Positions 1,472 to 63,663 of a stretch of 64,000 nucleotides of DNA are shown piece by piece; the stretch's first letter is position 1, and every line of letters starts with the position of its first letter. The DNA is taken from positions 3,712,001-3,776,000 of the forward strand of contig OZ001293.3 in assembly GCA_963921275.4 (NCBI GenBank). The letters are read 5' to 3'. Under the pieces are notes generated by a model. That model saw nothing but the letters and a program-made list of their open reading frames with translations. It ran no database searches and was not told where the DNA came from. Origin of the DNA: an uncultured Hormoscilla sp. GTDB lineage: Bacteria > Cyanobacteriota > Cyanobacteriia > Cyanobacteriales > Desertifilaceae. The position numbers and the translations under genes were made by a program.

Positions 1472-4168
1472 ATGTCAACGCTTGTAATTGTCGAATCTCC
1501 GACCAAAGCCCGTACCATACGGAACTTCCTGCCCTTTGACTATCGTGTAGAGGCATCAATGGGTCACGTGCGCGACCTCCCCTCTTCTGCTGATGAAATT
1601 CCCGAAGCTGTCAAAGGGGAAAAATGGGCGCAGCTGGGGGTTAACGTGGAGGCGGACTTTGAGCCACTTTATGTTGTCCCCAAGAATAAAAAAAAGGTAG
1701 TCACAGAACTGAAAAAAGCCCTCAAACAGGCTGATGAACTAATTCTGGCAACAGACGAAGACCGCGAAGGTGAAAGCATCAGCTGGCATCTTCTGGATCT
1801 GCTGAACCCGAAAGTCCCCATTAAGCGGATGGTGTTCCACGAAATCACCCGGGAAGCCATACGTAAAGCGCTGTCGGACTGCCGGAATATCGATATGCAG
1901 CTAGTCCACGCTCAGGAAACCAGGCGGATTTTAGACCGACTGGTGGGCTACACCCTGTCTCCCCTGCTGTGGAAGAAAATTTCCTCGGGATTATCAGCTG
2001 GGCGGGTACAATCTGTAGCTGTGCGGTTACTGGTGTTGCGGGAACGTCAACGTCGAGCCTTCCGCCAAGGTAGCTACTGGGACTTAAAAGCGATTCTGGA
2101 TATTCAGCATACCTCTTTTGAGGCGCGATTAGTTACCCTGGCAGGCAGTAAAGTTGCCACGGGCAGCGATTTTGACCCGGATACGGGACAAATTGCCTCT
2201 GGTAGAAATGTCAGACTGTTAAATGAAGCAGATGCCAAAGAACTTCAAGCCCGTCTGTTGGGTAAAACCTGGAGAGTCAGCTCCGTTGATGAACGACCGG
2301 TGACCCGCTCGCCTTCACCTCCCTTTACCACATCGACCCTGCAACAGGAGGCTAACCGGAAGCTGGGGCTATCGGCCAGAGATACGATGCGGACGGCTCA
2401 AAGTCTGTACGAACAGGGGTATATAACCTATATGCGGACGGACTCTGTGCATTTGTCCCAGCAGGCGATCGCCGCTGCCCGAGCTTGTGTAGAACAGAAG
2501 TATGGCTCTGAGTATCTCAGCCCGACACCGCGCCAGTACAAGACTAAAAGCAAAGGCGCGCAAGAAGCGCACGAAGCCATTCGTCCAGTGTCTCCTGAGA
2601 GCGCTAGTCGCACTACTCAGGAGACACCGCCAGCAGGTAGCAGTTTCCGCACGCCGTCTCTGACGGGTCTGACAGGGCGGGAATTTCAGCTGTACGACCT
2701 AATTTGGAAGCGTACTGTCGCGACCCAAATGGCTGCCGCCAGGGTTACTCAAATTATCGCCCTGCTGCTAGTGGAAGGGGCTGGCTTCCGTTCGACTGGC
2801 AAGCGAATTGATTTTCCTGGTTTCTTCCGTGCTTACGTAGAAGGTTCTGACGACCCAAATGCGGCTCTAGAAAACCAGGAAGTGATTCTGCCACCCTTAA
2901 AGGTAGGAGATCGCCCCAACTGTCGAGAATTAGAGGCCATTGGCCATGAAACCCAGCCTCCCGCCCGTTATACAGAGGCGTCCCTAGTGAAAACCCTGGA
3001 AAAAGAAGGCATTGGGCGTCCCAGCACCTACGCTACCATCATCGGCACGATCGTCGATCGGGGCTATGCTCAAATAATTAACAAAGCCCTAGTGCCCACC
3101 TTCACGGCCTTTGCGGTCACCAGTCTGCTAGAAGCACATTTTCCGGACCTAGTAGACACCCGCTTTACTTCCCGGATGGAGCGAACTCTAGATGACATCT
3201 CTACCGGAGAAGTGGACTGGCTTCCTTATCTGCGAGAATTTTATTGCGGAGAAACCGGTCTGTCCAATCAGGTAAAAGAACAGGAAAGCCAAATTGACCC
3301 AAAACTTGCTCGGACCGTGGAACTGGTTGGCTTAGAGGCCAAAGTCTGCATTGGCAGATTTGGCCCTTACATCGAAGTTGATAATGGCTCTGGTGTGCTC
3401 AAAGCTTCCATTCCCAAAGACCTTACCCCAGATCAGCTCGACTCCGAACAAGTAGAAGCGCTGTTGAAGCAGAAAACCTCTGGACCAGAGGAACTGGGTC
3501 AGCACCCAGAAACTGGCGATACTATCTATCTCCTGAATGGCAACTATGGCCCCTACCTGCAGCTGGGTGATGGCGATAGTGAGAAGAAGAAGAAGCCCAA
3601 GCGGTCCTCTCTACCTAAAGGCGTCACTCCCGATCTGGTCACCCTGGAAATGGCCGTAGGATTGTTGGCCCTGCCTCGCTTTCTGGGATCCCACCCGGAA
3701 ACTGATGCTAAAGTCCATGCTGGTTTAGGACGTTTTGGCCCTTATGTGGTTCACGACCAAGGTAAGGAAGGTAAAGATTATCGTTCCTTAAAGAAAGATG
3801 ACAATGTCTTGACAATTGATCTCCAACGTGCATTGGAGTTACTCGCTGAACCGAAGAAGCGACGCAATAGCCGCAGTAAGAAACCTTTACGAGAGTTGGG
3901 TAAACATCCATCAGATGGAGAACCAGTGAATATCTACGATGGGCGTTATGGTCCTTATGTCAATCATGGCAAAATTAATGTTACTTTGGCAGAGGGGACA
4001 GCGGTCGAAGAGGTGACCTTGGAGATAGCCCTAGAATTGCTAGCAGCCAAGGCTTCCACATCTTCAACCCGTCGCAAGTCGAGTAAGTCAACCGGGACTA
4101 AAAAGACTAGCGCCCGGCTTCCGGAGGGTAGTGCTTTTAGCGCTCCCTCCGGAGGCCACAAGCAATGA
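1472..4168 (+). CDS. topA: Type IA DNA topoisomerase I, carrying two in-frame 42-bp hairpin insertions
   Basis: LVIVESPTK Toprim start, [37 protein letters not shown]-terminal GRFGPY repeats. Confidence 0.98.
2587..2628. repeat. 42-bp hairpin element in frame in topA
   Basis: GTGTCTCCTGAG / CTCAGGAGACAC arms around loop AGCGCTAGTCGCACTA. Confidence 0.85.
4116..4157. repeat. 42-bp hairpin element in frame in the topA C-terminus
   Basis: GGCTTCCGGAGGG / CCCTCCGGAGGCC arms around loop TAGTGCTTTTAGCGCT. Confidence 0.8.
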
Positions 4169-4216
4169 TTTGGCTAATGGTTAATTGTTGATTGAAAGGC
4201 AACCATGCCATAACAA

Positions 4217-5329
4217 TTAGCCATTAGCAAAATCAGGAAATACTTCTCTTAAGGCAGGATGAACTAACTGATGATTTTTAACATTCAAACCTTTAGCTAA
4301 AGCTGAGCTCTTATCCAAAGCTTTAACACCGTGATTGGCGAGCTTTAAGACATAGGGGAGCGTAGCATTATTCAGTGCCTGTGTTGCAGTCCAAGGCACC
4401 GCCCCTGGCATATTGGGAACGCCATAGTGGACGACGCCCTCTTCGATGTAAGTTGGATTAGTATGAGATGTCGATCGCAATGTTTCGACGCACCCGCCTT
4501 GGTCGCATGCAACATCGATAATGACTGAAGCTGGGCGCATCTGTTGCACCAAGCTTCGGGAAACGAGGACGGGTGCGCGACGGCCTAAGACTAAAACTGC
4601 ACCAATCAGCAGGTCAGCATCTGGTACGACAGCTTCAATTTGTGCGGAATTACTATAGAGTAATTCCACTCTGGAGCCAAACAGGGTTTCCAAATAGGAT
4701 AAACGCTCCAGGTTGACATCGACGATCTGGACTTGGGCACCCATGCCCACAGCGATCCGAGCAGCTTCTGTGCCGACAACCCCACCTCCTATAATACAGA
4801 CTTGAGCCGGTCTGACTCCGGGAACACCACCCAGGAGCACCCCTCGGCCACCCTGCTGACGCTCTAGAAACCTGGCACCGAACTGCACCGACAGCCGTCC
4901 AGCGATGAGGCTCATCGGAGTCAGCAGAGGTAGGGTGGGCGTCCCCGGCTGCCGTTTTGAGTCGGGTAATTCTACCGTTTCGTAGGCGATCGCCGTTACG
5001 CCTTCGGATATCAGATGCTCAGTCAAAGTCTTGTCAGCTGCCAGATGCAAGTAGGTAAATAACAACTGATCTAATGCAAGAAACTTGTATTCTGGTGGCA
5101 GGGGTTCCTTCACCTTCACCACCATTTCCCGGTTCCAAGCTGCTGACGGTGTCTTGACAATTTCAGCACCTACCTGAATATAGTCTTCATCCGTGAAGCC
5201 TGCACCGGCACCTGCTCCAGTTTCGACAAACAGTCGATGACCATTTTCAGTTAGAACTCTAACACTACTTGGACTCAAGCCCACCCTAAATTCCAGATCC
5301 TTAGTTTCTTTGGGGACGCCTATTTCCAT
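4217..5329 (-). CDS. ald: Alanine dehydrogenase
   Basis: MEIGVPKE start, VKVKEP, FTYLHLAA, IIGGGVVG Rossmann motif, DQGGCVET, NMPGAVP. Confidence 0.97.
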   Translation of the reverse strand: MEIGVPKETKDLEFRVGLSPSSVRVLTENGHRLFVETGAGAGAGFTDEDYIQVGAEIVKTPSAAWNREMVVKVKEPLPPEYKFLALDQLLFTYLHLAADKTLTEHLISEGVTAIAYETVELPDSKRQPGTPTLPLLTPMSLIAGRLSVQFGARFLERQQGGRGVLLGGVPGVRPAQVCIIGGGVVGTEAARIAVGMGAQVQIVDVNLERLSYLETLFGSRVELLYSNSAQIEAVVPDADLLIGAVLVLGRRAPVLVSRSLVQQMRPASVIIDVACDQGGCVETLRSTSHTNPTYIEEGVVHYGVPNMPGAVPWTATQALNNATLPYVLKLANHGVKALDKSSALAKGLNVKNHQLVHPALREVFPDFANG

Positions 5330-5408
5330 GCTACCTCTCGATTGACCATTTATATAGGTTTAAGTTTGAATTACTATAGAATATAAATAATTGTAACCAA
5401 CTGAAATC

Positions 5409-5579: not shown

Positions 5580-5939
5580 AACGCAGCCCGATCGGGGGGG
5601 TAATGATAATTTGAATAACAATCAACCCCCGATGTCCCTTGACAGGGGTGATATTCTATTTTTACACCCCTGTCAAGGGACATCGCCCCCACCTCCGGAG
5701 CAGACTAGTGCAGCAGGGCAGAAATATAGCATTTCTCAAAATGGTGAGGTACAGTAGCAACGTAAAAAAGTTGTATAGGTCTGACAAACTAACATTTTCA
5801 AAACCATCAGTAATTGCATGGTTCTCGGTGACATTTTTTTCTTATAGCTCTTTAGCTGCGATCAAAAGTTCTCAATTGGAGAAAAATCGGGAGAATAAGG
5901 AGGTAGATAGACTAACCGCGCACCTACTTGTTCAATAGC

Positions 5940-6599: not shown

Positions 6600-8063
6600 T
6601 TACAAGCAACTTCTACGCCCTGGAACTTCCAGTTGAACGGTTTGGCCCAGCTAGGAATTGAAATACTCGATGAATGTCCGAATTTGCTGTTCGAGATCCA
6701 TCGTCGAGGTGAAATTGCCCCGTTTCAGTAAGCGTCTGACTAGAATCGAGAACCAGCATTCTATCTGATTTAGCCAAGATGTGTGTTTGGGGAGATAGAT
6801 AAAGCGAATGCGTCGTTGCGGGTCACTCAGAAAAGCCATGCGGGATGCCATTGACTTGAGAATGCCTGATTTTTCCTTCTCACCTAAATCCAGGTCTAAT
6901 TCCTCTCGTTTGGCCACCAGACGTACCAAAGTCTCAGACTTATGAGTGTTCAGTTGATCGACAATAAAGCACCAAGAAGCCAATGGGTCCGTATCAATTA
7001 CCTGTTCAATGTGTGTCGCCAAATCGGACTCTGTACACGTTGGTCCCAAATAGGGACAGAGCACTTGTCCCTGGGCAACATCCCAGGTGGCTATCAGCGA
7101 TCGTGTGCCGTGACGAATATAGTTGAACTCAATACGCTCGACCTGTCCTGGTTTCATAGAATGAGTTGGATATTCTCGTTCTAGCGCCTGGATGCCAGTC
7201 CGGAACGCCGGTGCTGACCACATGAGTCCCTTGGCTCAACAACTCAGGTGCATTTATATGCCACTGACAAATCTCCCGCACTTGTTGCTCAAAGGCTTGA
7301 CGGTCAAGAGGAGTATGCCACTCGCCAGTAGCGATTCCGGTGTGGCTTTAATGTAGCCTCATTTTAAAAAACGCCCCACACTGCGGGGCAAAATCTCCTT
7401 AACCAGTCCTCGTTTAACCGCCTCGTCAGCCAGTTCTCTGGGTGTCCAATGACTGATAGTACGATCCCTGCTAGCAGGTAGTTCACAGGCGACCGCCACT
7501 ATTTCGACAATTTGCTCTACACTGAACTTGCTTGGACTACCTGGGCGAGGACGATCACTCAGAACTGCTTCAATTGAGGGGAGCAACTGCTTAACCCACT
7601 TTCCGCACGACAAGTTGTAACATGCTAAGTAATACGTAATTTATCGGTTAGATTACTATTGCACTACTTTTTGTAATCCATATTGTATCTGATAATTTCG
7701 GAAACAGGACGTATATTTATTTATACGGATATGAACTTTTCGGTTCGTAAAATCACAAGCTGTTTGTAATCATTACATAATACATTTTGTCGTGCGGAAT
7801 GTATGCTTAATGGTTTCTACCTCCTGGTCGCAGAACCACTGCTGGCTAGCTTGATACCAAGGATTGCGCCATTCCCGTACAAAGCGTCGTCCCAGTTGTA
7901 ATTGCGACTCTATGGCGGTATTACTTTGACCATCGGCAGCGAGGAGAATCAGTTTAGCACGCTGCACCAAGCGATACGGTTTGCTAGTACAACGACTTAT
8001 CGATTCCAGACAGTCTCGCTCCAATTGAGACAGTACAATTGGGGTTGGCTTAGGGGTTGGCAT
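6600..8063 (-). mobile_element. IS630-family transposase, fragmented and interrupted by a MITE
   Basis: HTH (RAKLILLAADG), DRPRPGSP, YIRHGT, DQLNTH and LPKHTSWLNQIECWFS in separate ORFs. Confidence 0.85.
7591..7810. mobile_element. About 220-bp MITE, copy 1, bounded by TTAA
   Basis: Imperfect TIRs TTCCGCACGACAA / TTGTCGTGCGGAA; second copy at 9064-9284. Confidence 0.75.
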
Positions 8064-8106: not shown

Positions 8107-9567
8107 TAGACATTTCCAAAATATAAAATTCTGGTATAATAAGATTGAAAAAATTTAATTGTGAGGTTTAAGGAACATGATATATAGTTATACATGGACA
8201 TATTGAGAAGCACAAAGAAGCAAAGCAGTTAATCGGTATCAGTTATGAAAATTTTATGCAACTTATCATTTTAGCAAAAAAAATGAAAAAAAAGTATCAA
8301 GACAATGTATAAAAGACGAAAATTAGATTAATCGAACCAGAAGTCGGCGCCCAACCTAAATTATTAGTGGAAGATCAAATACTCTTAACCTTGATTTATA
8401 TACGACAAGGTTTGACATTTCAAATGTTAGGATTGCACCGTGAGCAAATCTACAATAATTATTTCAGTTATTGGCCAAAAATATTTTGAGCTCTTTGGCC
8501 GTTTGCTTGAACAGGTTAAATGTAATGGAGAAAATGAATAAATTTTAACAAATTTCTTAAAAGAGTATGAATTAATTGTAGATAGCGCAGAGCAAGCTAT
8601 TCCAAGGCCTAAAGGCTATGAAGAACAGAAAAAATTTTACTCCTGAGCAGGTAAGAAAAATACCATACATGGCTGCGCCCCCATCGCTACGCGTGGCGCA
8701 GCCATGCGCAGCGCTATCGAAAAAATCAATTTATTGTGTTGCCTAGTAGCGATAGCGAAGCGTGTGCAGACATTGTGAATATTATTCCTGGAGAGAGAGG
8801 TCGAAAAAGTGATATAAATATTGTGAGAGCCAAGAAAATTTTCATCGTCACTTGACAAGGGTGATTTAATAAGATATCACCCTTGTCAAGTGACACCGCC
8901 AGAACAAAAATTTGCAGGAGATCAGGCTTATATTGGAGAACCTCAAATAAAAACCCCCTTATAAAAAGCCGAAGAAACAAGAGTTAACAGAGTTACAAAA
9001 AGAAGAAAACAAATAATTTTCTTCTCGTTTTTGTGGAACATGTAATTAGGTTAGTGAAAATATTTAACCCACTTTCCGCACGACAAGTTGTAACATGCTA
9101 AGCAATACGTAATTTATCGATGAGATTACTATTGCACTACTTTTTGTAATCTTTACTAGCTCTGATAATTTAGTAAACAGGACGTATATTTATTTATACG
9201 GGTCTGAACTTTTCGGTTCGTAAAATCACAAGCTGTTTGTAATCATTGTGTCATACATTTTGTAGTGCAAAATGTATGATTTAAGGTTGCGGGGGAAACA
9301 TTTCGTTGAAATTCTGATAAATATAATTCAATAATTTCTACAGTTTGTGGGCTAGTTAGATTACGGATTGGTGCAGAAATTTTAGAAGTAGTAAGTAAGG
9401 GTGAATGCACCGAAAATTTTGAGGTTAACCAATACCATGCAATGGAAGTAATTTGTTGATAGAAACTCTATCAAACCCTGATGTCGCCGTTTAGATCACA
9501 TATGTGAGAAAGTGAGATTAGGCTTGAAACCCAGCGCTGGTAAAGGTTTTATTGTTGGAAATGTCTA
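8107..9567 (+). mobile_element. Decayed IS (IS5/ISL2-like DDE transposase pseudogene)
   Basis: TIRs TAGACATTTCCAA / TTGGAAATGTCTA; broken frames with ELIVDSAEQ and VEHVIRLVK motifs. Confidence 0.7.
9064..9284. mobile_element. About 220-bp MITE, copy 2, bounded by TTAA
   Basis: Near-identical to 7591-7810 and inserted in a different IS. Confidence 0.75.
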
Positions 9568-10478: not shown

Positions 10479-10801
10479 CGGTGTTCCCTGGGTAGTGCGA
10501 GTACAGCGCGAGCGGTCTCCGGTAGTGCTTTTACGATGTCTCGGGGGTAGTGCAGCGCTCTGTATCTCCCCTTTTGTGCGATTACGATGTCCTCCCTTTT
10601 GTGCGATTAGCGCTCCGCGTCCCCTTTTGTGCGATTAGCGCTCTGTATCTCCCCTTTTGTGCGATTACGATGTCCTCCCTTTTGTGCGATTAGCGCTCCC
10701 GGAGGACATCGAGCGACCAGGAGATACAGAGTCCCGGGAGACCGCTCGCCCTGTCAGGAGATACCTCGCCCTCCGAGACATCGAGCGACCAGGGAACACC
10801 G
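10479..10801. repeat. Nested multi-layer cluster of the hairpin element
   Basis: Outer 13-bp IR CGGTGTTCCCTGG / CCAGGGAACACCG encloses several more left arms followed by right arms, with GTGCGATTA loop halves. Confidence 0.8.
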
Positions 10802-10892
10802 CACTGCTGCGCAGTCCAACGGGGACTGGGAAGAATCGAAGCAAAAAGCTATGCAAGAATTCTTAGAACATGATGGCTTATCACCGGACATC

Positions 10893-10934
10893 GATATCTC
10901 TGGGGAGCGTTAGGAGCACTACCCCAGAGATATC
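10893..10934. repeat. 42-bp hairpin element
   Basis: GATATCTCTGGGG / CCCCAGAGATATC arms, loop AGCGTTAGGAGCACTA, C|G flanks. Confidence 0.85.
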
Positions 10935-11071
10935 GGAGAAGCCGCAAAGGGAGCTTTAATAATCCCCAAGCTCGATCGACCTGAAACCCTAACTCGACGT
11001 GAGTTCGACAGATTGGACAAAGCTGAAAAAATGGTGGAGACTGGATTTGAAGGATTCTGGTCTCCGCCGAT

Positions 11072-12730
11072 ATGACTCAAATTGTATCCCCCCTGGACAT
11101 CACTCGCATCTTCTGTGAGGTAGACGACTTCTGCCAGTTGTTCGAGTACCACTGGGAACAGCAACCCCAACTACCCTCCATGCCAGGGGAACGGTGTTGT
11201 CGCTCTCCTATGAGCCTTTCAGAAGTTATGACCATCGTCTGAGCCATGAAAGGCTCACAGGAGAGCACCTTCAAAGACTTTGTGCGTACTTCCCCACTGG
11301 CGCAAAGCCTTCCCCAACTTGGTCAGCTATCGTCGATTTGTGGAATTAATGCCCTGGTGGAAGATGCTGTTGTGTTCTTTTCTACACACCCTCAAGGGAG
11401 AAGTCACGGGCATTTCTTTTATTGATTCTACACCCATAGAAGTCTGTAACCCTTGCCGCGCTCATAGCCATAAAGTGGCGTTGCACAACTCCGGGATGAT
11501 GAGTTATTGCAGATTATTATAATCTGCAATAACTCATCATAAATTTATAATTAGCATAGGCTGATTTTACACAGGAGTACCAATTAGTGGTATAATGGAT
11601 ATTAAAGCTAATTTAGAATGTCAAGGAGTTGAATATGAAATGTCCACTCCGGTGCTTCGGAAAAAGTCAATAAAAATGATCATCTACGTGGCAAAAAAAT
11701 TTATTTGCAAGAATTGTGGCCGCCAGTTTATTGAACATTATTCTCCACGAGGCTATCCGAAAGAAGTGAAAGAAAATTGTTGAAAAATGTCCGTTAATGG
11801 CAAGGGCTTTCGAGGGATTGAAAGAATCACTGACGTCAATCATAATACTGTCATCAATTGGGTAAAAAAAGTAGCTCAACACTATTCTCCCCGAAAACTA
11901 TGAGATCCGGTTTCATAGATTGACGAGTTACATATTTATGTAGGTGAAAAAAGAATAAAAAGTGGTTATGGACAGTTGTTAATCATTTTCAACCTGGAAT
12001 TATAGCATGGACTTTAGGAGACCGATCGGCAGAAACATTTAAGCCATTGTGGAAAATAATAAAAGGCATTATTTTTTTAGGTGACGGATGGTTGGCCAGT
12101 ATCTTCAAAGTTTATTGAAGATATTAACCAGATAGTGAGTAAAACTTACATGACTCGTGTTGAAGGTGAAAACTGTCGATTAAGACATGATTTCGCTCGA
12201 TTAAAAAGAAAAACCTTGTGTTCCTCAAAATCCGAAGAAATGTTAATGCTTTCAAATGTTAATGCTTTCAATTAAGTTACTTTGACAGTATTTACGTTAT
12301 AATTTCATACCTGTCTATAGTTAAATCATCCCCTAATTGTGCAACGCCCATAAAGTTTTTAAGGGGCTAGTTTATTGGGTAAAGAACTCTGTGGGCTGGC
12401 AAAATGGAATTCAAATTGCACCTGATTATCAAGGAGCGGGGTGAATTGCTGGCTTTCAAGCTCACTGCGGCTAATGTTGACGAGCACAAGCCCGTACTGG
12501 ACATGGCACAAGACTTGTTCGGGAAGTTGTTTGGCGAGCGCTTCTATGTTTCCCAAAAACTGTTCGAGAAATTCTATGAACAGGGTTTAAAACTGATTGC
12601 CAAGTCGAAGGGGAACAGGAAAAACCGTTTGATGAAAATGCTAGACAAAATCCTGCTACGTAAGCGGGCTGTCATTGAGTCGGTCAACGACCAACTCAAG
12701 AATATCTGCCAAATTGAGCATTTTCGTCAT
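11072..12730 (+). pseudogene. IS982-family transposase pseudogene split by an IS1
   Basis: FPNLVSYRRFVELMP, FIDSTP, FKLHLII and KRAVIESVNDQLKNICQIEH motifs. Confidence 0.8.
11477..12348 (+). mobile_element. IS1-family element (frameshifted)
   Basis: TIRs GGCGTTGCACA / TGTGCAACGCC; 8-bp TSD CATAAAGT; CKNCGRQF and KTYMTRVEGENCRLRH motifs. Confidence 0.9.
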
Positions 12731-12734
12731 CGGA

Positions 12735-14993
12735 GGGGCGTATCTAAAGGTTGGGGGAGAACTTTGGGACTGAATGGAAAAGAGTATCAAAGCGTTGATT
12801 GACTCAACCCAAGGGAAGGTATAAGAGATGATTGAAGCCAGTCTCGCTCCAACTCATTCCCACCCCCTTAAAGCGTTGCTGAATCAACCTAGACCATGCA
12901 CTTTCCACCAGACCAGAACCCGGTAGTGATAAATATGTAGTGATAGAACATTCCAATTAATCCTTACTTTTCTTAGGAATGATATAACAGCTCTTTATAT
13001 TAGCAAAATTGATAGCAATGATAAGATATTCTCATGTATAGCTCATCAGAAAAATGCTCTTATGTTATTAGTCAAAAGCGAGTATAGACTTATGAACACA
13101 TCATCATCTTTAGGGTCGCGACCCAATTGCCCTTATTGTAATTGTGAGCGAACAGTAAAAAATGGTAGTACTCATAATAAAAAGCAAAAATATGTAAAAA
13201 ATCGGCAATAAATTGAAAACCCGACAGCAAGTATCGTCCGAAAAGAAAAAGAATATAGATGAGCTATTACTTGAAAGAATATCTTTGGCAGGTATTGCGC
13301 GTCGAGTAAAGCTTTCACAAACCTGGCAAGTATGTTAATAAAAAATCTGCCGTGAGATAAAGGTTTCAGACAAGCCCAAAGGAAAATTGACTATTGAATG
13401 TGATGAAATGTGGTCTTGGGAATAAAGAAAAAAAACATTGGCACTTGATACAAAAACAAGAGAAATTGTAGGATTTGAGCGATCGCAGTCGTGAATCAGC
13501 AAAAAAATTGTGGAAATATTTACCTTCTGTTTATCGACGCGGTTTTTTACTTTTTGGGAAGCATATAACAATACCGAAAAAGCGTTACTATTGCGGTAGG
13601 TAAAGAAACTGGAAAAACTAATCATATTGAAAGGTTAAACAACGAGGCAAAGAATTAGTCGCTTGGTTCGGAAAACATTATCATTCTCTAAGAAGAAAAT
13701 CACGCGATTTGGTATTTTGTGCATGATTACAACAAATGCTTGTCGGGTTAGTTGTGCCATCACTACATGTTTATCACTACTCAGAACCCAAAGGCAACTG
13801 CTCTTGTTCAAAATTGGAATAAGCCACATGCTGACGGTGCTTTTGGAAATATGCTTGTACTTGCGTAAGTATATTCATTGATTCGTCTTTCAAAGTCAAA
13901 GTATTTACCAGTCGAGTCAACTCCATTAGCACTTGGGTATGTTTGCCATGACCCAGGAGATGTCGCCAGGGTTCAAAGCAAACCTGAGTCGCTTCGGAGT
14001 CACGCCCCAACCAAGCAGTTGCCCCTCGCCACAGATGACCAGCCCCATGGTAAAAGTCGAGAATACCGATCGCGCAGTGAGCAAAGCACTCTCGCGCTTA
14101 GTCGCCAAAAGCCTACTCCACCGTCCGCCATACCAGCTTCGGTGCTTGATCAAGTCCTTGATGCAAGGACTCCCAAAGCAATCGGGGTTTTAAAGTATCG
14201 ATCTCTCCTAACACTGCTACTAATCGTCCTTGGCACAGACGGCTATAAAGCTTGCCTGTAGCGGTTTTGAGGAATTTTAAACGCGCTATTACCGCCAATG
14301 AGCACTTCCTGCCATCTAGTTTTGCCTTTGGCTGTACCTATGTGAGGAGGAAATGGTACCATCACACCATCGGCACTCAACACCATCATCAAGCTCTGAA
14401 ACTCTTCACTCATGGGTTCCTTTGGCACTTCCTCCCCTGCTGCCATCGCTGTCAGACGCTCTTCCCACATAAGTTTTGCTTGTTGACCTGCCTGTTGTAC
14501 CCAATTCCACAGACTGCTGTCGCTAATGTGAACTCCCGTGAGTTCCTCCAGCAACTGCCTGGCCAATTCATAAGGCACAAAAACACTCAACAGACTCCCT
14601 AGTCGTTTGACTTCCCAGGAGGTTTGCTGGTAAGGGGCGATTCCCAGTTGTGCATCCGACGGTACCTGCTGACTCCCGAAACAACCTTTCCGACATCGCA
14701 GCACTCGCCGTTTCCATTGCACCACTCAAGGGCAGGGTGTGGATTTGACGGCTAACTTTCCCTTTACTGTGCAAGGGACTTCCACAGTGAGAACACAATT
14801 GATTCTCCCCTCCGAGACTACCTCGCTGTTCTAGCTCTGCTTTCAGCAATTGCTTGCCCAGATACCAAGCCATCTGTAACACAGCAATTACCAACTCCCT
14901 TAAGCTTTGGGCAGTATCTATGGCCTTTGAGAGTTTTTCCCATTGCTCTGACACTGGTAAACTCGCTTCGATTGCAGCTATGATAGAGTTCAT
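12735..14993 (-). pseudogene. ISKra4-like transposase pseudogene, interrupted by an IS1
   Basis: CSHCG, ADGVMVPF and LPLGS(G) motifs in broken frames. Confidence 0.65.
12922..13781 (+). mobile_element. IS1-family element (decayed)
   Basis: TIRs GGTAGTGATAAATATGTAGTGAT / ATCACTACATGTTTATCACTACT; 8-bp TSD CAGAACCC; ECDEMWS and RLVRKTLSFSK motifs. Confidence 0.85.
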
Positions 14994-15053: not shown

Positions 15054-16065
15054 ACCTAAGTTGCGACCTATTAAAAAAAATATGAATTACCCACTTAGAC
15101 TTTACAGATATTTGGGATATTTCGTAGCTTTTGATACAAAATTATATTTTTTTTGTGCTACACGGCGGGTTGGCTGTTTATAGGTTATAATGTACTAAAA
15201 TAATAGTTAATTGCTGGGGGATGTAGATGATGAAAGATATGATTACAACAATTTTTGTTCTTTGTGACGAGCTACTAAAAGCGTTAAATATAAAAGAAGA
15301 TCCACAAGTAAAAATGAACAATGCCGAAGTGATGACAGTCGGATTAGTTGCTGCATATTTTTTCGGAGGACACCACGATCGCTCTTGTCAATTTATGGTC
15401 CAACACAAGTATATAAAAAATCTGTTAAGTAAAAGTAGGTTCAATCGTCGATTACACAATATTGAGGAACCAATTTGGATGTTTTTCTTCCAAGTTATAG
15501 CTCAAACATTTAAAGAGCTCAATCCGGGTCAAGAATATATTCTTGATAGTTTCCCGGTGCCAGTATGTGATAATATTAGGATTGATAGATGCCAAATTTA
15601 TAACAAGGAAGAATATCGAGGGTATATTGCCAGTAAAAAACGTTATTTTTATGGATTAAGAGTTCATATGTTGGTAAACAAAAATGGAAAGCCAATAGAA
15701 TTTTATCTAGATCCTGGTAGTTATAATGATTTTAAAGTTTTGCAATCTTTTGGCTTTGACTTACCATCAAATTCAATAGTTTATGGAGATAAAGCTTATA
15801 ATAATTATCAATTAGAGGATTTACTAAAAGAGTCGTCAAGTATAATGTTAAAACCTTTGCGAAAAAAGAACTCAAAAAGAAAAGAATCTTCTTGTTTTGA
15901 ATATATACAAAAAGTAACAAGAAAACAAGTTGAAACCTGTTTTAGTCGAATCACCAATTTGTTTCCCAAGTCAATTCATGCTGTTACATCTAAGGGATTA
16001 GAGTTGAAAATAATTCTCTTTATCATAGCTTTTTGTATCCAATTTTTATAGGTCGCAACTTGAGT
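15054..16065 (+). mobile_element. Apparently intact IS982-family element
   Basis: TIRs ACCTAAGTTGCGACCTA / TAGGTCGCAACTTGAGT; 7-bp TSD TATACTA. Confidence 0.9.
15227..16051 (+). CDS. IS982-family DDE transposase, 274 aa
   Basis: SKSRFNRRL, ILDSFPVPVC, YFYGLRVH, YGDKAY, RKQVETCFS motifs; uninterrupted ORF. Confidence 0.9.
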   Translation: MMKDMITTIFVLCDELLKALNIKEDPQVKMNNAEVMTVGLVAAYFFGGHHDRSCQFMVQHKYIKNLLSKSRFNRRLHNIEEPIWMFFFQVIAQTFKELNPGQEYILDSFPVPVCDNIRIDRCQIYNKEEYRGYIASKKRYFYGLRVHMLVNKNGKPIEFYLDPGSYNDFKVLQSFGFDLPSNSIVYGDKAYNNYQLEDLLKESSSIMLKPLRKKNSKRKESSCFEYIQKVTRKQVETCFSRITNLFPKSIHAVTSKGLELKIILFIIAFCIQFL

Positions 16066-16130: not shown

Positions 16131-16285
16131 CGATGTCTCCTGTGTGCCGTTCCCGTAGCGTGGCGCAGCCATGTCCCCTGGGACAAGAGCAAGGAGCAGA
16201 GATATCTCCGATGTCTCCTGTGTGCCGTTCCCGTAGCGTGGCGCAGCCATGTCCCCTGGGACAAGAGCAAGGAACAGAGATATCG
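16131..16285. repeat. Tandem pair (78-bp period) of a CGATGTCTC...GAGATATC element; relatives near 26140-26219 and 61158-61211
   Basis: Direct repeat visible; same terminal arms as the hairpin family. Confidence 0.8.
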
Positions 16286-21971: not shown

Positions 21972-22275
21972 TTTTCTGTTGTCAGTTGTCAGTTGTCAGC
22001 GTTTAACATTCTCTCTGCCTGGTACGTGCTCACCAAGAATCTATCGGGCTCTTTGTAGTGAGCCTGCTGTGTCTCTTGACAGAAGTGATGGGCCTGGTAC
22101 TTATAAAAATAGTACCAGCGTGAGCGTCTGCGATATTTCTGGGGATCTCGATGTCTCTGGATATCTAGATGTTTCCCGGGAGCGCCTTAAGCACAACTCC
22201 GGGGTAACATCGTATTCGCACTACCCCGGAGATATCGTATTCGCACGTCCTCTCTGGGGGATATCGACCTCTACT

Positions 22276-49729: not shown

Positions 49730-49987
49730 CGTGTCTCCTGGGAGCTCGATGTCCCCGGGTCGCTCGATGTCTCGGGAGAGCTTGATGTCCCCCGGACGTA
49801 TGGCGAAAACCCTACGATGTCCCCCGGACGCATGGCGAAGAAAACCCTACGATGTCCCCCGGACGCATGGCGAAAACCCGAGGGACATCGGGGGGACATC
49901 GGGGGGACATCATAATCGCACTACTCCCGAGACATCGTAATCGCACTACCCCGGGGACATCATAATCGCACAAAAGGGGAGACACGG
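49730..49987. repeat. Nested hairpin-element cluster; single 42-bp copy nearby at 50034-50075
   Basis: CCGTGTCTCC...GGAGACACGG outer arms enclosing multiple GATGTC / GACATC arms. Confidence 0.8.
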
Positions 49988-50434
49988 CACAAGGGTTGCA
50001 GCCAAAAGGGCCTTATTTTTTCAATGTCTGCTCGATGTCTCCCCTTTTGTGCGAGTAGTGCTCCCAGGAGACATCGAACCCAGGACTAACTTGCCTAAAA
50101 TTGCTCTATCGAGCAAAGGCTGACGCTGCGATGCGCGAGGGGTAGTGCGAGTAGCGCGCCCCGAGTGCATCGCAAGGCTTGCAGCTACGTACAGCCAAAA
50201 CGGTCCGGACTATTGTGATCGGCATCTCTACTGTTACATATTTTATACTTTTCTTTACTTTTTAGATCTTATTCCAGGGAAAGATTGCTCCTACATCCGC
50301 TTACCACCTGGCTCGGAAGGCTTTTTTGTTAAGCTATTTTAAGCACCGTTGATGTTTTAAGTTAGATTAGATAGAATTGTTCGGGATTTGGTAGTGCTAA
50401 CTACAGAGTTCGCAGAAAAAGGAGGTAAGCTAGA

Positions 50435-52838: not shown

Positions 52839-53709
52839 GTGCGATTCGTTCTAGCCTAACGTGGTCAAACACGGAACGCTAGCCCGGTTTCATTAGCCGG
52901 GAACTCTGACCGCATGGGGGTTAAATTCCCCTCCCCCCAGGTACGGGGGTGACACCGGTCCTCGGTGCTACGAAGCGACATCATCGTGGTGCTAAGCGAG
53001 GACTCAAATGTAGGATAACTGGCAGCCTAAGCCGGTGACGCCGCTAGGAAAGATATCCAAGGTTAGAGCAGGCAAACATGTGCAAGCCTCGTTATAAGGA
53101 ACCAGCGAAATAAGGCTATATGCGCTGGCCTAAAAAGGAAATGGTAGCTAGTATTAGTTTTAGACTCTGGCTAATATAGTACTCAAATAGCTCCCGGGGT
53201 ATAGTGTGGACCTAAAGGTATCGCGAAATGTTGTTAGGGAACGAAGTAACCTCTCGTGTGCTGTCCATCAGGACAAGTTAGATGTTAAGCGCAAGCCACG
53301 GGGGGAGGGATGGCCCAAGAAGCGAATGCCCGGGGTAATTCCTGGGATAACATCTACAGTAATGTAGATGATGCTGGGTAGCCAGCGCTGACGTGGGTCG
53401 GTGATACTAGGAAGCTGCTGGAATGAGTAATCCTAAAAAGCCACGGAACTAATCCGAAACGCAAGTGGAGGATAAGGTATGGATAACTGGTAAAACTGAC
53501 TTGAAAATGGTGATACTAACGGTTATCAGAACAACCACTCGCTAAACCAGGAAAGGGAAGAAAAGACAGGCGGCAAGGGCTAACGGAAGTAATTCCTATT
53601 AAGTCTACCTATGAAAAGGGCCTAGTACCCAGTAGCCGGATGCGGTGAAAATCGCAAGTCCGGTTCCGAAAGGGAGGGTCGGGAAGCGATTCCCGGCTCG
53701 ACCCCATCC
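52839..53709 (+). mobile_element. ORF-less group IIB intron, copy 3 (871 nt), sense orientation inside a gene
   Basis: GTGCGATTCGTT start; DV AGCCGGATGCGGTGAAAATCGCAAGTCCGGTTC; removal restores the reading frame. Confidence 0.95.
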
Positions 53710-57123: not shown

Positions 57124-57368
57124 TGTTGCTTTGACTCCATTGACGGTATTTTCAAGACTTGTGTTATTATAGATTACGATCGCTCCCATATCCAGGTGGC
57201 GATCGCAATATCATGTAGGGGCACGGCATCCAAAATCTTTCGGTTCATGGGAAAAGGTAATTATCGCCCCCGCTCCGGCCCGACGCGATCGCCAAAGTCC
57301 CCGATCGCCCCGTCTAGGGAAATGTAAATTAATCGGGCAGATAAACTGCGTTGGACACAATGACTCTT

Positions 57369-57773
57369 CGGCGTTGGATAGTCAAGGGTCGGCGTTGGGT
57401 AGTCAAGGGTCGGCGTTGGATAGTCAAGGGTCGGCGTTGGGTAGTCAAGGATCGGCGTTGGGTAGTCAACGGTCGGCGTTGGGTAGTCAACGGTCGGCGT
57501 TGGATAGTCAAGGGTCGGCGTTGGATAGTCAAGGGTCGGCGTTGGGTAGCGAACAGTCGGCGTTAGAGATCCACCCCTGCGCGTTGAGTAGCGACCCGTG
57601 CCCATTGGAAATCCACCCGTGCCCGTTGGAGATCCACCTGGATTGGGTTAATCTTGCACCCCTGCGCGTTAATTTTGCACCCCTGCGCGTTGACTAGTGA
57701 ACTATAAGCGTTGGATAGTGACTCGTGGGCGTTAAGCACAACGAGACCCCGTTAAGCACAACGATCCCTCGTT
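57369..57773. repeat. 21-bp-period tandem array, near-perfect units then diverged units
   Basis: CGGCGTTGG(A/G)TAGTCAAGGGT repeated about 8 times, then the period continues with degenerate units. Confidence 0.85.
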
Positions 57774-59326
57774 CCCCTAAACGAAACCAAGATCCCAGGG
57801 AACGACCGGTGAAGTGCAGGGCCCGATCGGGCGACAGGGTCTCTCGCGCTCACTTGTAGTTGATAGCCAGGTGCATTGATGATGCATGTAATATAGCCCG
57901 CGCAGGCGGGCTTTGTTCCTGTAGCCGGGCCCTTTAGAGTTCGGGCGGGGAGGCCGAGTACTCTCAACCATAGAACTGAAAATTCTGGGAATTTCCGGGA
58001 ACAAAATTTCCACCGCCCCATTCCCCTACGCAAGCAGCAGACACGATTAAAGAATTTCTTTAGGATTCCAGGGTAAGCGCAAGAATCATGGTTGGGGCAT
58101 CTATTATCAACTATAATGAGAATGATTCCCTTCTCCGGTGCGAATAGGGCACAGTCCACTCGCAATTTTCGTTGCTCCATACCACATGCACAATTTTTCT
58201 TGCGCTTGCCTTAGGATTCCGGCTTGCCAGAGGATTAGTCCCGGGCTATGCTAGAGTCATTGTGTTGAACTGGACCGAGCCATGTAGCGGAGAACGGAAC
58301 AGAGGCTTATGTTTGGTAATAACATTATTGGGAAGGTACTGCGACAGCGTTACAAGATCCTCCGGAAATTGGGGTCCACTGAGGGCGGCATGGGGGAAAC
58401 CTATTTAGCTGCAGACTTAGATGTCCCCAGTCGCTAGCAATGCGTTGTCAAGCGGATCAAACCGAGAAGACGCAGAGAAAAAGCTATTATCAGGCTTTTC
58501 CGTAAAGAAGCTAAGGTGTTAGAGTTGCTGGGCAAGGAATGGGATTTTATTCCCCAACTGTATGCCTACTTTGAAGAAGGCTCAGATAAAAATCTGGTTC
58601 AGGAACTGATAGAGGGTCACGACCTCCGTCAAGAAATTCAACCGGGCCAACCCTGGCGGGAAGCGGATGTGCGTCAACTCTTGCTCGGTGTCCTGGAAAT
58701 TATCGCTTGCGTTCATGACAATGAGGTCATTAGAGGTGAGTGGCGATGGCAGAATTCTCTTATCGGGAAGCTGCGATCGGACGATGAAGGTGTGGTCAAT
58801 AGAGAAAGGGGAATGCCTGTACAATATAACAGGATTGACGGGAGAAGTGCTGGCAGTGAGCCTGAGTTACGACGGTCGGCACGGGCTATCGGGGAGTGCC
58901 GATGGCGAAATAAAGTTATGGAAAATAGAGGGTGCCGAGGGGTGCATCTCACTTTTGCACGAGCGAAGCATTCGGGCATAAAATTTGTCGTCTTCTGTCA
59001 TCATTTTTATGCCCAAATGCTTCGCCCCTACAGATGGATCTGCAAATATGAGATGCACCCGGTGCCGAGTGCTTGGAAACCTGGGAAGGGGAGAGTGCAG
59101 AGCATCAAGTTCAGTGCGGACAGTCGCTACGGGTGAGAGGAGAGGAAATATCGGTGCGGACCTTAGAGTGGAAAATAGCAGAGTGGGAGCCAGAAGCCTG
59201 GGATGAAGGTGCCCGATCGTACCTGAGGAACTTCATCAGATTGTACGACATTAAAGGTTCCCAATGTCAAGAAGCTGAGTTTAAAAAGCTAATGAAAATC
59301 CTGGGATATGGGGGATATGGGTGGCT

Positions 59327-60197
59327 GGATGGGGTCGAGCCGGGAATCGCTTCCCGACCCTCCCTTGAGGAACCGGACTTGCGATTTTCACCGCATCCGG
59401 CTACTGGGTACTAGGCCCTTTTCATAGGTAGACTTAATAGGAATTACTTCCGTTAGCCCTTGCCGCCTGTCTTTTCTTCCCTTTCCTGGTTTAGCGAGTG
59501 GTTGTTCTGATAACCGTTAGTATCACCATTTTCAAGTCAGTTTTACCAGTTATCCATACCTTATCCTCCACTTGCGTTTCGGATTAGTTCCGTGGCTTTT
59601 TAGGATTACCCATTCCAGCAGCTTCCTAGTATCACCGACCCACGTCAGCGCTGGCTACCCAGCATCATCTACATTACTGTAGATGTTATCCCAGGAATTA
59701 CCCCGGGCATTCGCTTCTTGGGCCATCCCTCCCCCCGTGGCTTGCGCTTAACATCTAACTTGTCCTGATGGACAGCACACGAGAGGTTACTTCGTTCCCT
59801 AACAACATTTCGCGATACCTTTAGGTCCACACTATACCCCGGGAGCTATTTGAGTACTATATTAGCCAGAGTCTAAAACTAATACTAGCTACCATTTCCT
59901 TTTTAGGCCAGCGCATATAGCCTTATTTCGCTGGTTCCTTATAACGAGGCTTGCACATGTTTGCCTGCTCTAACCTTGGATATCTTTCCTAGCGGCGTCA
60001 CCGGCTTAGGCTGCCAGTTATCCTACATTTGAGTCCTCGCTTAGCACCACGATGATGTCGCTTCGTAGCACCGAGGACCGGTGTCACCCCCGTACCTGGG
60101 GGGAGGGGAATTTAACCCCCATGCGGTCAGAGTTCCCGGCTAATGAAACCGGGCTAGCGTTCCGTGTTTGACCACGTTAGGCTAGAACGAATCGCAC
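59327..60197 (-). mobile_element. ORF-less group IIB intron, copy 4 (871 nt), near-identical to copy 3, antisense to its host gene
   Basis: Reverse complement of 52839-53709 with only a few substitutions seen. Confidence 0.95.
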
Positions 60198-60272
60198 AGA
60201 CCCGAAAGGGGTGCGCCAGCAGTTAGCTGCAATGTCTCCCAGGAGATCGTAACAGACGAGAGTTCAGTTTTC

Positions 60273-60510
60273 CAGCAACAGGAACCTCCCGAAGGCGATC
60301 GCCCTGTTCGGCAACAACAGGAACCTCCCGTTACCCAGCAACAGGAACCTCCCGAAGGCGATCGCCCCGTTCGGCAACAACAGGAACCTCCCGTTACCCA
60401 GCAACAGGAACCTCCCGAAGGCGATCGCCCCGTTCGGCAACAACAGGAACCTCCCGTTACCCAGCAACAGGAACCTCCCGAAGGCGATCGCCTCGTTCGG
60501 CAACAACAAG
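60273..60510 (+). repeat. 63-bp tandem repeat, about 3.8 copies, encoding QQQEPPEGDRPVRQQQEPPVT
   Basis: Units start at 60273, 60336, 60399 and 60462; each has a HIP1 site. Confidence 0.9.
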
Positions 60511-61320
60511 TATCTCCACCGCCAAGAAAGGGGGAAAGATCGAGACTGCCCAAGGCTGCGATCGGGACAGTAATAGGAATAGTAGTGTTATTAATAGGGT
60601 TCTTTTTATTTTCAGCCAAAACCAGGGGACGGAGAGATAGAGCCGAGTATCCGAGTAGAGTAAAAGTGCGATAAGCCGATCGCGAAAAGAATAAGATATT
60701 ATCAAGGGCAGAAAAACGACGCGGATATTGACATCCGAATGGAAGCGGAGTTAGCATTAAAGCAGGGACTTGTGGACCTGCAAAAAGAATACGATATGCA
60801 AGGAAAACTAGAGTGTTTAGAAGAAACATTATCGAAGTTGAAGCACACCTATGCGGTAGAAATATTAGCATCAAGCGGTCAGTTGGGAAAAGCAAGAGAA
60901 ATGCTGAAAGAAATACCCAGCAGCTATAGCGACTATCCAGAAGTAGAAAAGAAACTGCAACAATAAAATGGAGAATGGAGAATGGATGTAGGAATGCGAT
61001 CGCAAAAATAATGTAGGGGCACAAATAAAAGATGTTTCGGTTTACGAGGCAAATGTGATTATTGCCGTGCCCCGGCAAGAGGCGATCGCCATTAAGCGTC
61101 ACGGACCATTGCACCCAGAGGGGATAGATGAGAAGAACTGGAACTATTTGATGCCGCGATGTCTCCTGTGTGCCGAGTCCCCTGGGACAAGAGCAAGGAG
61201 CAGAGATATCGAAAGTAGAAAATAGATGGAGATCCTGTTACTTTAACATGATGGTATGCGAGCGCGTCGGGGAAGTCTCCGCATCTGATGAAGTATTCAG
61301 CCAAATATGGTGAAAATGGC

Positions 61321-61830
61321 ATGAGTAAGAGTTATCTGTTGGATACAAATATCGTCTCGGCAATTTTAAAGAAGAATGAGAAGATTAACCAAAAGATGGA
61401 GCAAGTGCGGCGGCAATGCCAGTCAGCGTTCATCAGTGGCATTACATACTACGAAGTAAAAAGAGGATTGCTGGCTACCCGTAGGAGAAAGCTATTAGAA
61501 TTCGATGTCTCCGGAGTAGTGCGAGTTCGGTGTCCACCGGGTAGTGCTCCTAACGCTCCCCGGGGACACCGAAAGCTCTCCGGAGACATCGAAGAGGGTT
61601 TGTGCAGAAGGTATAGAGTTTTACCGGTGTTGGACGAGATAGAGGTTCTCGAAATTGCATCAGAAATACATGCAGAGTTAAAAGGTCAAGGGAGGCGGTT
61701 AGAAGATGCAGATATCCTGATAGCGGCGACGGCAATAACACAAGGTCTAATTCTGGTATCGCACGAGCGGGATAGGCAGAGAGTGACGGGGAGCACTATA
61801 GAGGACTGGCTAGAACATAACCAATGCTGA
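61321..61830 (+). CDS. PIN-domain (VapC-like) toxin with an in-frame 87-bp nested hairpin insertion
   Basis: YLLDTNIVS, YYEVKRG, DADILIAATA. Confidence 0.85.
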   Translation: MSKSYLLDTNIVSAILKKNEKINQKMEQVRRQCQSAFISGITYYEVKRGLLATRRRKLLEFDVSGVVRVRCPPGSAPNAPRGHRKLSGDIEEGLCRRYRVLPVLDEIEVLEIASEIHAELKGQGRRLEDADILIAATAITQGLILVSHERDRQRVTGSTIEDWLEHNQC

Positions 61831-61902
61831 GGGATCGGAGATATTTCAGTCCACAGGCCGGATTTGGGTAAAATAGCAAAACTACCTCAAAGGACTTTGA
61901 CT

Positions 61903-62868: not shown

Positions 62869-62880
62869 TAAAATAGCGTT

Positions 62881-63663
62881 ATGGCAAACGCGAAGAACCA
62901 CTATCAGCTCTTAGAAGTTAATTCAGCGACGACCCAAGCAGAGATTAAACAAGCCGATCGCCACCAGGCCAAGGGATTTCACCCAGACAGTAATCCCATG
63001 GCCGCTTTCCACGAAAAGATCGCCCGCATTAACGCCGCCTACGATGTGCGATGCTGCTGTGTCTCCTGGGAGCTTGATGTCTCCCGGGAGCGCTAGGCGC
63101 ACAAAAGGGAAGACATCATAGTCGCACAAAGGGGAGACACAGCGCGCGCACCAGGCTGCAAACTCCGCCTGCGCGATCGCACTGGGCGGAGCACATTAAT
63201 CGCACATCGCAGGGAAATCGGCAAACGGGACAGGATATTGACGAGCACTTGCAGCAATGGCTAAAGCAAGTTTACGTGCCAGTGAACTGTGTGCCCCGGG
63301 AGCGCGGTTGAGCACTACTTGGGAGACACAACCGCTTACTTGCCCGGATCCTCAACTCTTTAGAAGCGGAAATCTATGAATTATCTGCCGATCCTTTTGA
63401 CGATGAACTGCTGTCATGATTTCAAGATTACCTAGAAGACTGTCGGAATTTTCTGTCTTTCGATGTCTCCGGAGAGCTTTCGGTGTCCCCCGGGAGGAGA
63501 TGAGATTGAAGATTTAAACTGGTTTACCCTTAATATGATGAACATTATCTACACAGAGGTCAAGAGTTGTTGAGAATTGCCGCTGGGTTGCGTGGGGAAG
63601 CTCATCGGGCGATTAAATATATTGCGGCGTTGCTAAAGAGCAAAGTTCAAAAGAACAAGCTAA
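62881..63663 (+). pseudogene. J-domain (DnaJ-like) protein pseudogene disrupted by several hairpin elements
   Basis: NHYQLLEV...FHPD...INAAYDV; downstream ELSADPFDDEL in broken frames; end approximate. Confidence 0.8.

Follow-up and report, generated by a model that had tools for sequence, protein, structure and literature searches.

A 64-kb stretch of the genome of an uncultured cyanobacterium, Hormoscilla sp. (assembly GCA_963921275.4, contig OZ001293.3, positions 3,712,001 to 3,776,000 of the forward strand; this whole stretch is hereafter denoted the window), carries numerous copies of a short hairpin-forming sequence that inserts as a unit of 45 bp and is found both in intergenic DNA and within genes, including topA, rpoB and rpoC2. 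Sites that are filled in one Hormoscilla strain and empty in another show that the element is mobile and that the family is currently or recently active. The hairpin very probably represents a mobile element of the same kind as the repetitive extragenic palindromic sequences (REPs), the Rickettsia palindromic elements (RPEs) and the small dispersed repeats (SDRs) of Nostoc.

A 45-bp unit with a conserved loop and covarying arms

All eight 42-bp hairpins listed in the initial annotation of the window, which was made from the sequence alone, are present where it placed them; as it described, seven of them have C as their left and G as their right neighbor (only the copy at 4116-4157 departs from this), and the copies in rpoC2 and in a histidine kinase gene have poorly matched arms. 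Its count of at least eight copies is exceeded by a covariance model seeded with 37 copies (alignment A2), which detects 18 distinct places in the window at E ≤ 0.001 in addition to nests of copies within copies. The unit length of 42 bp, or 14 codons, that was assigned to the element has to be corrected: the gain per insertion is 45 bp (15 codons) in six of the six measured events. When up to two mismatches are allowed, the window contains 19 matches to the loop motif compared to 1.22 expected (the maximum in 100 shuffles is 5), and a search by structure alone, for perfect 12-bp arms separated by loops of 6-30 nt, retrieves eight hairpins from the window and 0, 0 and 0 from three shuffled sequences. 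Among the hairpins identified solely by structure, 11 of the 14 unselected 16-nt loops are of the same type, and here too the loop is more constant than the arms.

The unit consists of a 42-bp palindrome, with 13-bp arms and a 16-nt loop, and three further bases with the tail consensus GAA. When the loop is written TAGTGC..., at least 90% of the seed copies have a C immediately before the palindrome, which is followed on the 3′ side by G, then A (33/63) and again A (43/63). The placement C^[42 + GNN] fits the insertions in the SMC gene, at an intergenic site, in rpoC2, at the first topA site and in a small repeat that are described below. No target duplication of 2 bp or more is present at any of the six resolved sites, where nothing longer than about 1 bp is seen. 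The conserved loop contains the palindrome AGCGCT and, as read from its sequence, is able to pair with itself through five pairs (one of them a T-G wobble) around GA-N-TA, which would put the single variable base of the loop at the very tip. In some copies, the loop has undergone short deletions between repeated TAG triplets. No Rfam family overlaps the hairpins, and a literature search for the loop 8-mer returned only unrelated primers and constructs.

The description of the loop as conserved and of the stems as strongly different captures part of the pattern, in that the loop is constant and the arms vary with compensating changes, but the divergence of the stems was overstated given that they have a consensus, C-GATGTCTCC-N-GGG and its complement. 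The left arms have a mean pairwise identity of 65%; the outer part of the arm, GATGTCTCC, is seen 48 times with at most one mismatch compared to 13.5 times expected, and the outer bases are the best-kept part of the stem (at least 90% for the flanking C and 84-95% for the TGT core). Changes on both sides have occurred in 12 of the 14 stem pairs, and the covariation score of 0.523 vs. 0.177, reached by none of 500 shuffles, comes with the caveat that the seed copies behind it had been pre-selected for pairing. In 48 copies selected by their loops, the arms of the same copy form on average 11.6 of the 14 possible pairs compared to 8.74 for arms taken from different copies (the maximum in 1000 shuffles is 9.52), and 27 of these 48 distinct Hormoscilla copies have at least 13 of the 14 pairs; the anticipated association of the loop with inverted repeats thus holds in Hormoscilla. 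The 68 canonical copies include 57 distinct arm pairs, and those arm pairs that are repeated mostly represent one locus in different strains. Young, strain-specific copies all have different arms, which implies that many copies are able to act as donors. Chimeric copies that combine the arms of two sub-families also exist, as exemplified by the copy in rpoC2.

One sub-family, which includes a copy absent from the earlier list (50129-50172, plus strand; 56.9 bits) and the loci L023, L026, L050 and L051, has the same two-base mismatch in the middle of the stem, with A opposite G and G opposite A. The persistence of this mismatch at several unrelated loci suggests that it is a conserved structural feature.

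Presence and absence between strains

The topA protein encoded in the window shares 95% identity with its counterpart in Hormoscilla sp. GUM202, followed by relatives with about 80% identity or lower. Alignment with the orthologues reveals two 45-bp copies in this gene, one immediately after the AHEAIR motif (2585-2629, minus strand; residues 372-386) and the other in the last codons (4115-4159, plus strand; residues 882-896). The first copy is missing from nine of the ten aligned homologues and is shared only by the 97%-identical relative P0001, and the second is missing from all ten, the 97% relative included. Neither of these 15-residue gains is seen in Hormoscilla GUM202, in another Hormoscilla or in seven further cyanobacteria. 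Similarly, the chimeric rpoC2 copy (18330-18374, plus strand; 45 bp, residues 1200-1214) accounts for 15 residues that are found in the window protein only, that is, in one of the ten aligned proteins. In the same gene, a 48-bp hairpin of a second family, with ends of the CGATG type and a different loop (19560-19607, plus strand), encodes 16 residues that are missing from all nine other aligned rpoC2 proteins.

Empty and filled sites were further identified among strains whose orthologous loci are 92-99.6% identical. In the SMC gene, strain SP12 carries a copy at a site that is unoccupied in strain GM7, the difference being exactly 45 bp; an intergenic site that is empty in the window (61854/61855) holds a copy of, again, exactly 45 bp in GUM202 and GM7; and seven filled and four empty copies of a small repeat with a T-arm-like hairpin differ by 45 bp. 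In the gene for a PIN domain protein, one copy is located in the loop of another (61503-61591, plus strand): the outer copy is common to two other strains, and the intact inner copy (61528-61571) is found in the window alone. A gap-tolerant BLAST search for empty sites, performed for 99 copies across the sample, recovered only the two already known polymorphic sites. For the copy in the kinase gene, the orthologues obtained in a search of representative genomes are at most about 56% identical and cannot be aligned around residues 79-93. In sum, distant orthologues are free of the segments, empty sites exist in close strains, and the characterization of the element as tiny, non-autonomous and mobile is borne out by presence and absence between the Hormoscilla strains.

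Copies inside protein-coding genes

Among 98 distinct copies, 32 are located in stop-to-stop frames of at least 200 residues, and Pfam domains were detected in 15 of the 22 host frames tested, in agreement with the proposal that the element colonizes genes in frame. In addition to the genes already mentioned, the hosts include SMC, pheT, ppc (phosphoenolpyruvate carboxylase), amiC (amidase) and the genes for aspartokinase, G6PD and a chorismate-binding enzyme. The few genic copies that are near the N-terminus may precede the real start codon.

The genic copies use five frames (14, 7, 5, 3 and 3 copies, respectively, some of these being orthologous duplicates), of which two were represented among the first five cases in the window; the frame that is never used is the one that carries TAG. 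Four of the six frames are free of stop codons, a fifth is open only where the variable loop base creates a codon for tyrosine, as it does in every copy that uses this frame. The initial annotation had pointed to a length divisible by three as the property that allows copies to reside in essential genes. The five length variants in Pfam-matched host frames all differ by multiples of three (+6, +9, +15, +18 and +39, with the caveat that one host match, DUF948, is weak), whereas non-genic length variants include -5, -4, -1, +1, +4 and +5. That the genic copies are all stop-free and vary in length by threes, and the non-genic copies do not, is expected only if the genic copies are translated. The genic pattern points to insertion at random and subsequent selection acting on the translated copies, and not to frame-specific insertion. 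Removal of the genic copies at the RNA level (splicing) is ruled out by the stop-free frames and the multiple-of-three length variants. An AlphaFold2 model of topA, built from an 11-row alignment, was too poor to place the insertions (mean predicted local distance difference test score, pLDDT, 50.9; predicted template modeling score, pTM, 0.26).

A separate difference among the rpoC2 proteins is the 11-residue segment LRAPSAVPEKS, which is present in the proteins P0243-P0249 beside the position of window residue 1222 and missing from the window protein; this segment may be a further strain-specific small insertion.

Insertion into the element's own loop

Ten of 93 distinct copies sit in the split loop of another copy, and in nine of these ten cases the split follows loop base 11, in either orientation. 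As loops account for only a minute fraction of the genome, this distribution reflects a strong preference of the element for its own loop. Repeated nesting is apparent in an intergenic nest of units inserted into one another (10480-10801, plus strand; innermost intact copy, 10668-10711), in a nest upstream of the kinase gene in which two loop families are mixed (49738-49985, minus strand), in the pair in the PIN gene described above, and in rpoB (23785-24027, plus strand), where at least five hairpin units are present. The folds of the rpoB, intergenic and kinase-upstream nests have z-scores of -5.9, -5.9 and -7.8, respectively. The rpoB nest is translated as 81 extra residues (633-713) in a variable surface region; five other Hormoscilla rpoB proteins are without it, and in one further relative the corresponding site holds a nest of 115 residues. 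An alternative view of the array at 10566-10698 as resembling a clustered regularly interspaced short palindromic repeat (CRISPR) locus is ruled out, given that the array folds as nested hairpins.

The small repeat with the T-arm-like hairpin, about 200 bp long with a core (GGGTTTGAACCC) that resembles the T-arm of tRNA, is a hotspot for the 45-bp element, being filled at L016, L019, L028, L032, L039, L072 and L073 and empty at L050, L064, L071 and L073. Copies of this repeat have the loop of the inserted element in both orientations at the same site. ARAGORN did not call the repeat a tRNA in the four of its loci that were scanned.

Host range

When 185,579 species genomes were searched for a loop pattern of 17 letters, at least 80 loci were retrieved. 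Among the matches listed, 52 of 80 loci come from four Hormoscilla genomes, and the remaining 28 are single matches in unrelated taxa, none of which has more than five contiguous pairs beside the motif. Within this set, the motif recurs inside hairpins only in Hormoscilla, so that the family appears to be specific to this genus. Desertifilum seems to be the closest genus that does not have the element. Hormoscilla spongeliae is described, in a passage of PMC6520454, as a filamentous cyanobacterial symbiont of Lamellodysidea sponges. Term searches of the two Hormoscilla genome papers, and searches of a literature library, found no mention of these repeats.

Possible mechanism of mobility and alternative explanations

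The explanation that we favor, with confidence only somewhat above even, is that Hormoscilla harbors a family of very small non-autonomous mobile hairpins that are moved in trans as a folded single strand. According to this scenario, the 45-nt unit would move as single-stranded DNA folded into a hairpin, and a trans-acting enzyme would read the conserved loop and the shape of the helix rather than the sequence of the arms. Resident loops would be favored as targets, offering the same recognition site in an exposed form. Since 45 is divisible by three and four of the six frames lack stop codons (five, if the variable loop base permits), insertions in tolerant parts of proteins would pass selection as additions of 15 residues, and repeated nesting would lengthen these additions. 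An enzyme that reads a folded single strand is favored by the combination of the fixed-size gain, the lack of duplication, the required hairpin, the conserved loop, the diverse arms and the preference for exposed loops. The initial annotation stated outright that the element is recognized by loop sequence and structure; this statement is not supported as written, and such recognition is, rather, what the conservation, the covariation and the own-loop insertions suggest. The likeliest candidate for the enzyme would be a HUH-type single-strand transposase, of the IS200/IS605 or REP-associated tyrosine transposase (RAYT) kind, and this specific mechanism is put forward tentatively, as a possibility that we rather doubt.

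Several observations weigh against this reading. The 26 reading frames of the window that were scanned include none with a HUH or RAYT domain, and a scan for HUH/Y1 motifs (with signatures from PMC6006769) in 0.94 Mb of Hormoscilla DNA gave a Rieske oxygenase as the sole match; this sample, much of which was picked for holding the loop motif, amounts to about one seventh of one genome's worth, spread over five genomes, and the negative result is weak either way. The orientation of the loop shows no link to the local GC skew (29, 25, 23 and 22 copies in the four classes), and a replication-coupled single-strand mechanism might have given one. Several hairpin families with other loops, such as the rpoC2 hairpin at 19560-19607, share CGATGTC ends, so that the ends and not the loop could be what is recognized. 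Finally, the nested copies fit the placement [N C 42 G] better than the placement given above, and the exact ends cannot be fixed; none of the cut-site geometries tried accounts for every event.

The assertion that the mobilizing enzyme is not in the window has thus been only weakly tested, in that no HUH or RAYT domain was found, but fragments of DDE transposases (6651-7223, 12404-12802 and 15227-16051) and a TnpB-like gene are present there. The latter, a 570-residue frame at 44387-46099 (minus strand), combines a radical SAM domain (residues 60-227) with domains of the IS605 OrfB/TnpB type (residues 331-536) and gives the impression of another gene into which a TnpB element has been fused in frame. 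A more radical version of the favored scenario is a 45-nt transposon that is recognized by its loop and not by its ends, is moved by a class of enzyme new to such elements, prefers its own loops and builds, by nesting, translated segments of 81-115 residues in essential genes, rpoB being an example. We consider this version unlikely; if true, it would mean that new protein insertions arise by a path open to observation between living strains.

Among the explanations that do not involve a folded single strand, an extremely short miniature inverted-repeat transposable element (MITE) survives best and is nonetheless improbable. In such an element, the arms would serve as terminal inverted repeats to which a resident insertion sequence's DDE transposase binds, with the loop being filler conserved through recent common descent. 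In favor of this view, conservation in the stem is highest in the outer arm bases, hairpin families that differ in their loops have these ends in common, and fragments of DDE transposases are present in the window. However, none of the six resolved sites has the target duplication (at 2 bp or more), and arms that differ between copies at 12 of 14 positions and still pair are hard to square with sequence-specific binding of the ends. Moreover, the loop is more constant than the arms even in hairpins collected by structure only, and 45 bp is far below the 70-300 bp given for MITEs in a passage of PMC3733652.

The fixed size and position of the insertions bear, likewise, on the quite improbable possibility that no dedicated enzyme is involved and that the hairpins spread by replication slippage, template switching or gene conversion, with existing copies as templates. 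Such a process would readily yield the chimeric copies of two sub-families, the occurrence of both loop orientations at the same position within the T-arm-like repeat, the short deletions between TAG triplets in the loops and the differences between events in the three extra bases. Yet the gain is exactly 45 bp in six of six events at unrelated sites that have no evident homology to the element, and insertion into loops occurs at one fixed base in nine of ten cases; this precision points to an enzyme. The least probable explanation, a host-beneficial module (a protein-binding, methylation or RNA-structure site) that is kept and spread by selection with mobility being secondary, would account for the strong conservation of a loop that contains AGCGCT, for the internal mismatch retained by one sub-family at several loci and for the sharing of the family by four Hormoscilla species-level genomes, but the unrelated contexts of the copies (five coding frames, intergenic DNA and the inside of other repeats), the differences between close strains and the small share of copies in long reading frames (32 of 98) make up the pattern of a selfish element under purifying selection, and there is no Rfam match.

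Other copies and small repeats in the window

The remaining copies in the window range from intact to degenerate. Two intact intergenic copies are located at 10892-10935 (minus strand; the 42-bp palindrome with the flanking C and G, 59.9 bits) and at 37917-37960 (minus strand, 65.7 bits), with a 49-nt length variant near the latter, at 37846-37894 (plus strand). The copy at 30100-30138 (minus strand) has a loop shortened to 11 nt, and that at 30224-30271 (minus strand) has mismatched arms. Degenerate copies are found in the last codons of a cyclophilin-type gene (30767-30810, plus strand; the gene occupies 30750-32012 on the minus strand) and in the GAF-histidine kinase gene (49364-49407, minus strand; residues 79-93). 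A variant loop that starts with TTGTGC is present in the copies at 50033-50076 (plus strand) and at 63075-63118 (minus strand), the latter within a small nest at approximately 63060-63140. A further segment, 63290-63329 (minus strand), is a probable degenerate copy that was read by eye and falls short of E = 1 in the covariance search.

Hairpins with ends of the CGATGTC type and different interiors are found, in addition to the one in rpoC2, at 16131-16284, 5630-5685 and 61153-61215, and include a 78-bp unit that is repeated twice beside a DDE transposase fragment. Other very small insertions differ between Hormoscilla strains at L034, L037, L038, L044 and other loci, and are present in the window at 8684-8705, 16151-16172 and 16229-16250. 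These include a 22-bp unit that starts with ATGGCTGCGCC and ends beside ATC, which recalls the insertion of SDR5 into HIP1, and a 21-23-bp hairpin, GTTCCCAGG...GGGAAC, which is found once within the loop of a 45-bp copy. Hairpins of 42 bp and 50 bp also vary between strains, as does a 102-bp unit that occurs at three places, in two of them with TA at the junction.

Larger features of the window include the RNA polymerase genes themselves. The usual order in cyanobacteria is rpoB-rpoC1-rpoC2. In the window, rpoC2 (17766-21971, minus strand) comes directly after rpoB (22276-25923, minus strand), the two being separated by only about 300 bp of repeat-rich DNA (21971-22276) with no rpoC1. The group II intron model RF00029 has three matches (44-47 bits, above the gathering score) at 982-1059 (plus strand), 53631-53707 (plus strand) and 59329-59405 (minus strand). 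A 21-bp tandem repeat (9.4 copies; 57368-57691) lies near a weak match to the CRISPR-DR28 family (57894-57917; 36.6 bits vs. a gathering score of 35), and a 63-bp tandem repeat (3.8 copies, 98% matches; 60272-60508) is contained within the reading frame 60182-61114.

Implications

Bacteria commonly harbor very small palindromic repeats, and the Hormoscilla family provides unusually clean material for studying how the smallest of these, the SDRs of Nostoc included, move, with a fixed 45-bp gain, many differences between strains, a conserved loop set against covarying arms, and a precise landing site in the element's own loop. Several Hormoscilla genomes, at least one of them closed, are available, so that genome comparison by itself should suffice to locate the cut sites and to identify the enzyme. 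In this still-uncultured sponge symbiont, selfish DNA lengthens topoisomerase I and the beta and beta'' subunits of RNA polymerase by 15-residue steps. On the practical side, the copies inflate the apparent divergence of proteins and can break assemblies and gene calls in Hormoscilla genomes.

Comparison with known families of small repeats

The GTAG- and CGTC-tagged REPs are short palindromic sequences that are thought to be miniature mobile DNA, and some of them are wholly intragenic and translated; the products of the intragenic REP clusters are 43-82 residues long, and the host genes often function in replication and repair (PMC3733652). The present family likewise inhabits topA, rpoB, rpoC2 and SMC and has formed a nest of 81 residues in rpoB. 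However, REPs have an unpaired GTAG or CGTC tag at one end, whereas the ends of the Hormoscilla hairpins are a paired C and G (C-G in 29 of the 37 rows of A2), and GTAG is found in the 45-bp element only at the junction of stem and loop. Furthermore, REPs are 20-40 bp long and mostly extragenic, compared to 45 bp and 32 of 98 copies in frames of at least 200 residues in Hormoscilla, where the loop is the constant part and clusters arise by insertion into loops, not side by side. With respect to a RAYT gene flanked by repeats (REPtron), the motif scan of the 0.94 Mb over five genomes produced no HUH/Y1 candidate.

The REPINs are hairpin-forming, non-autonomous elements in which compensating changes are common and whose presumed mobilizing enzyme is a single-copy HUH tyrosine transposase (PMC3116915, PMC6006769). 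Transposases of this type (IS200/IS605 TnpA and the RAYTs) act on a folded single strand, and RAYT subclasses exist in cyanobacteria (PMC6006769). The arrangement of the REPINs, with two conserved REPs inverted around a variable tip, is the reverse of that in the Hormoscilla element, where conservation is highest in the central 16 nt and it is the arms that vary, and no RAYT was found in the sampled Hormoscilla DNA.

The RPEs are palindromes of an obligate host-associated bacterium that are inserted in frame in many unrelated, probably functional genes (PMC3733652, PMC10969869). The Hormoscilla element resembles them in its in-frame insertion into topA, rpoC2, rpoB, SMC, pheT and other genes, but RPEs are about 100-150 bp long and encode one conserved peptide in one frame, whereas the 45-bp element uses five frames and encodes different peptides. 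The two families belong to different phyla and show no sign of sequence relatedness.

MITEs possess terminal inverted repeats and generate target-site duplications; the arms of the Hormoscilla hairpin could serve as such repeats, but no duplication of 2 bp or more is present at the six resolved sites. Palindromes derived from IS200/IS605 have hairpin ends, make no target duplication and insert beside a fixed short target. The Hormoscilla element has a hairpin and shows no duplication; the only constant feature of its target is the preceding C (at least 90% in A2), together with a weak AAG/G bias on the other side. No TnpA was found in the DNA sampled.

The SDRs of Nostoc, SDR1-8 in the account by Elhai and colleagues from 2008, reportedly measure 21-27 nt, nest one in another and fold into hairpins with compensating changes. 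By this account and by citing passages (PMC5861425, PMC4390886, PMC13756078), the SDRs and the Hormoscilla family are both very small mobile repeats of cyanobacteria that form hairpins with compensating changes, nest, and use one exact base of a short target for insertion, with no enzyme known for either. In size, as compared by description only, the SDRs at 21-27 nt (SDR5, for example, is 21 nt; PMC13756078) differ from the element that adds 45 bp in six of six events. They also differ in distribution, since SDRs, according to a passage of PMC5861425, are not found outside Nostocaceae and the 45-bp family belongs to Hormoscilla. For the SDRs, systematic colonization of essential genes in frame is not known to have been described.

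Thus, the Hormoscilla family fails the defining tests of REPs, REPINs, RPEs and SDRs, be it the end tag, the size or the arrangement, yet it clearly works like them, and what is unusual about it is the conserved loop, the preference for insertion into its own loop and the step-wise growth of insertions in essential proteins.

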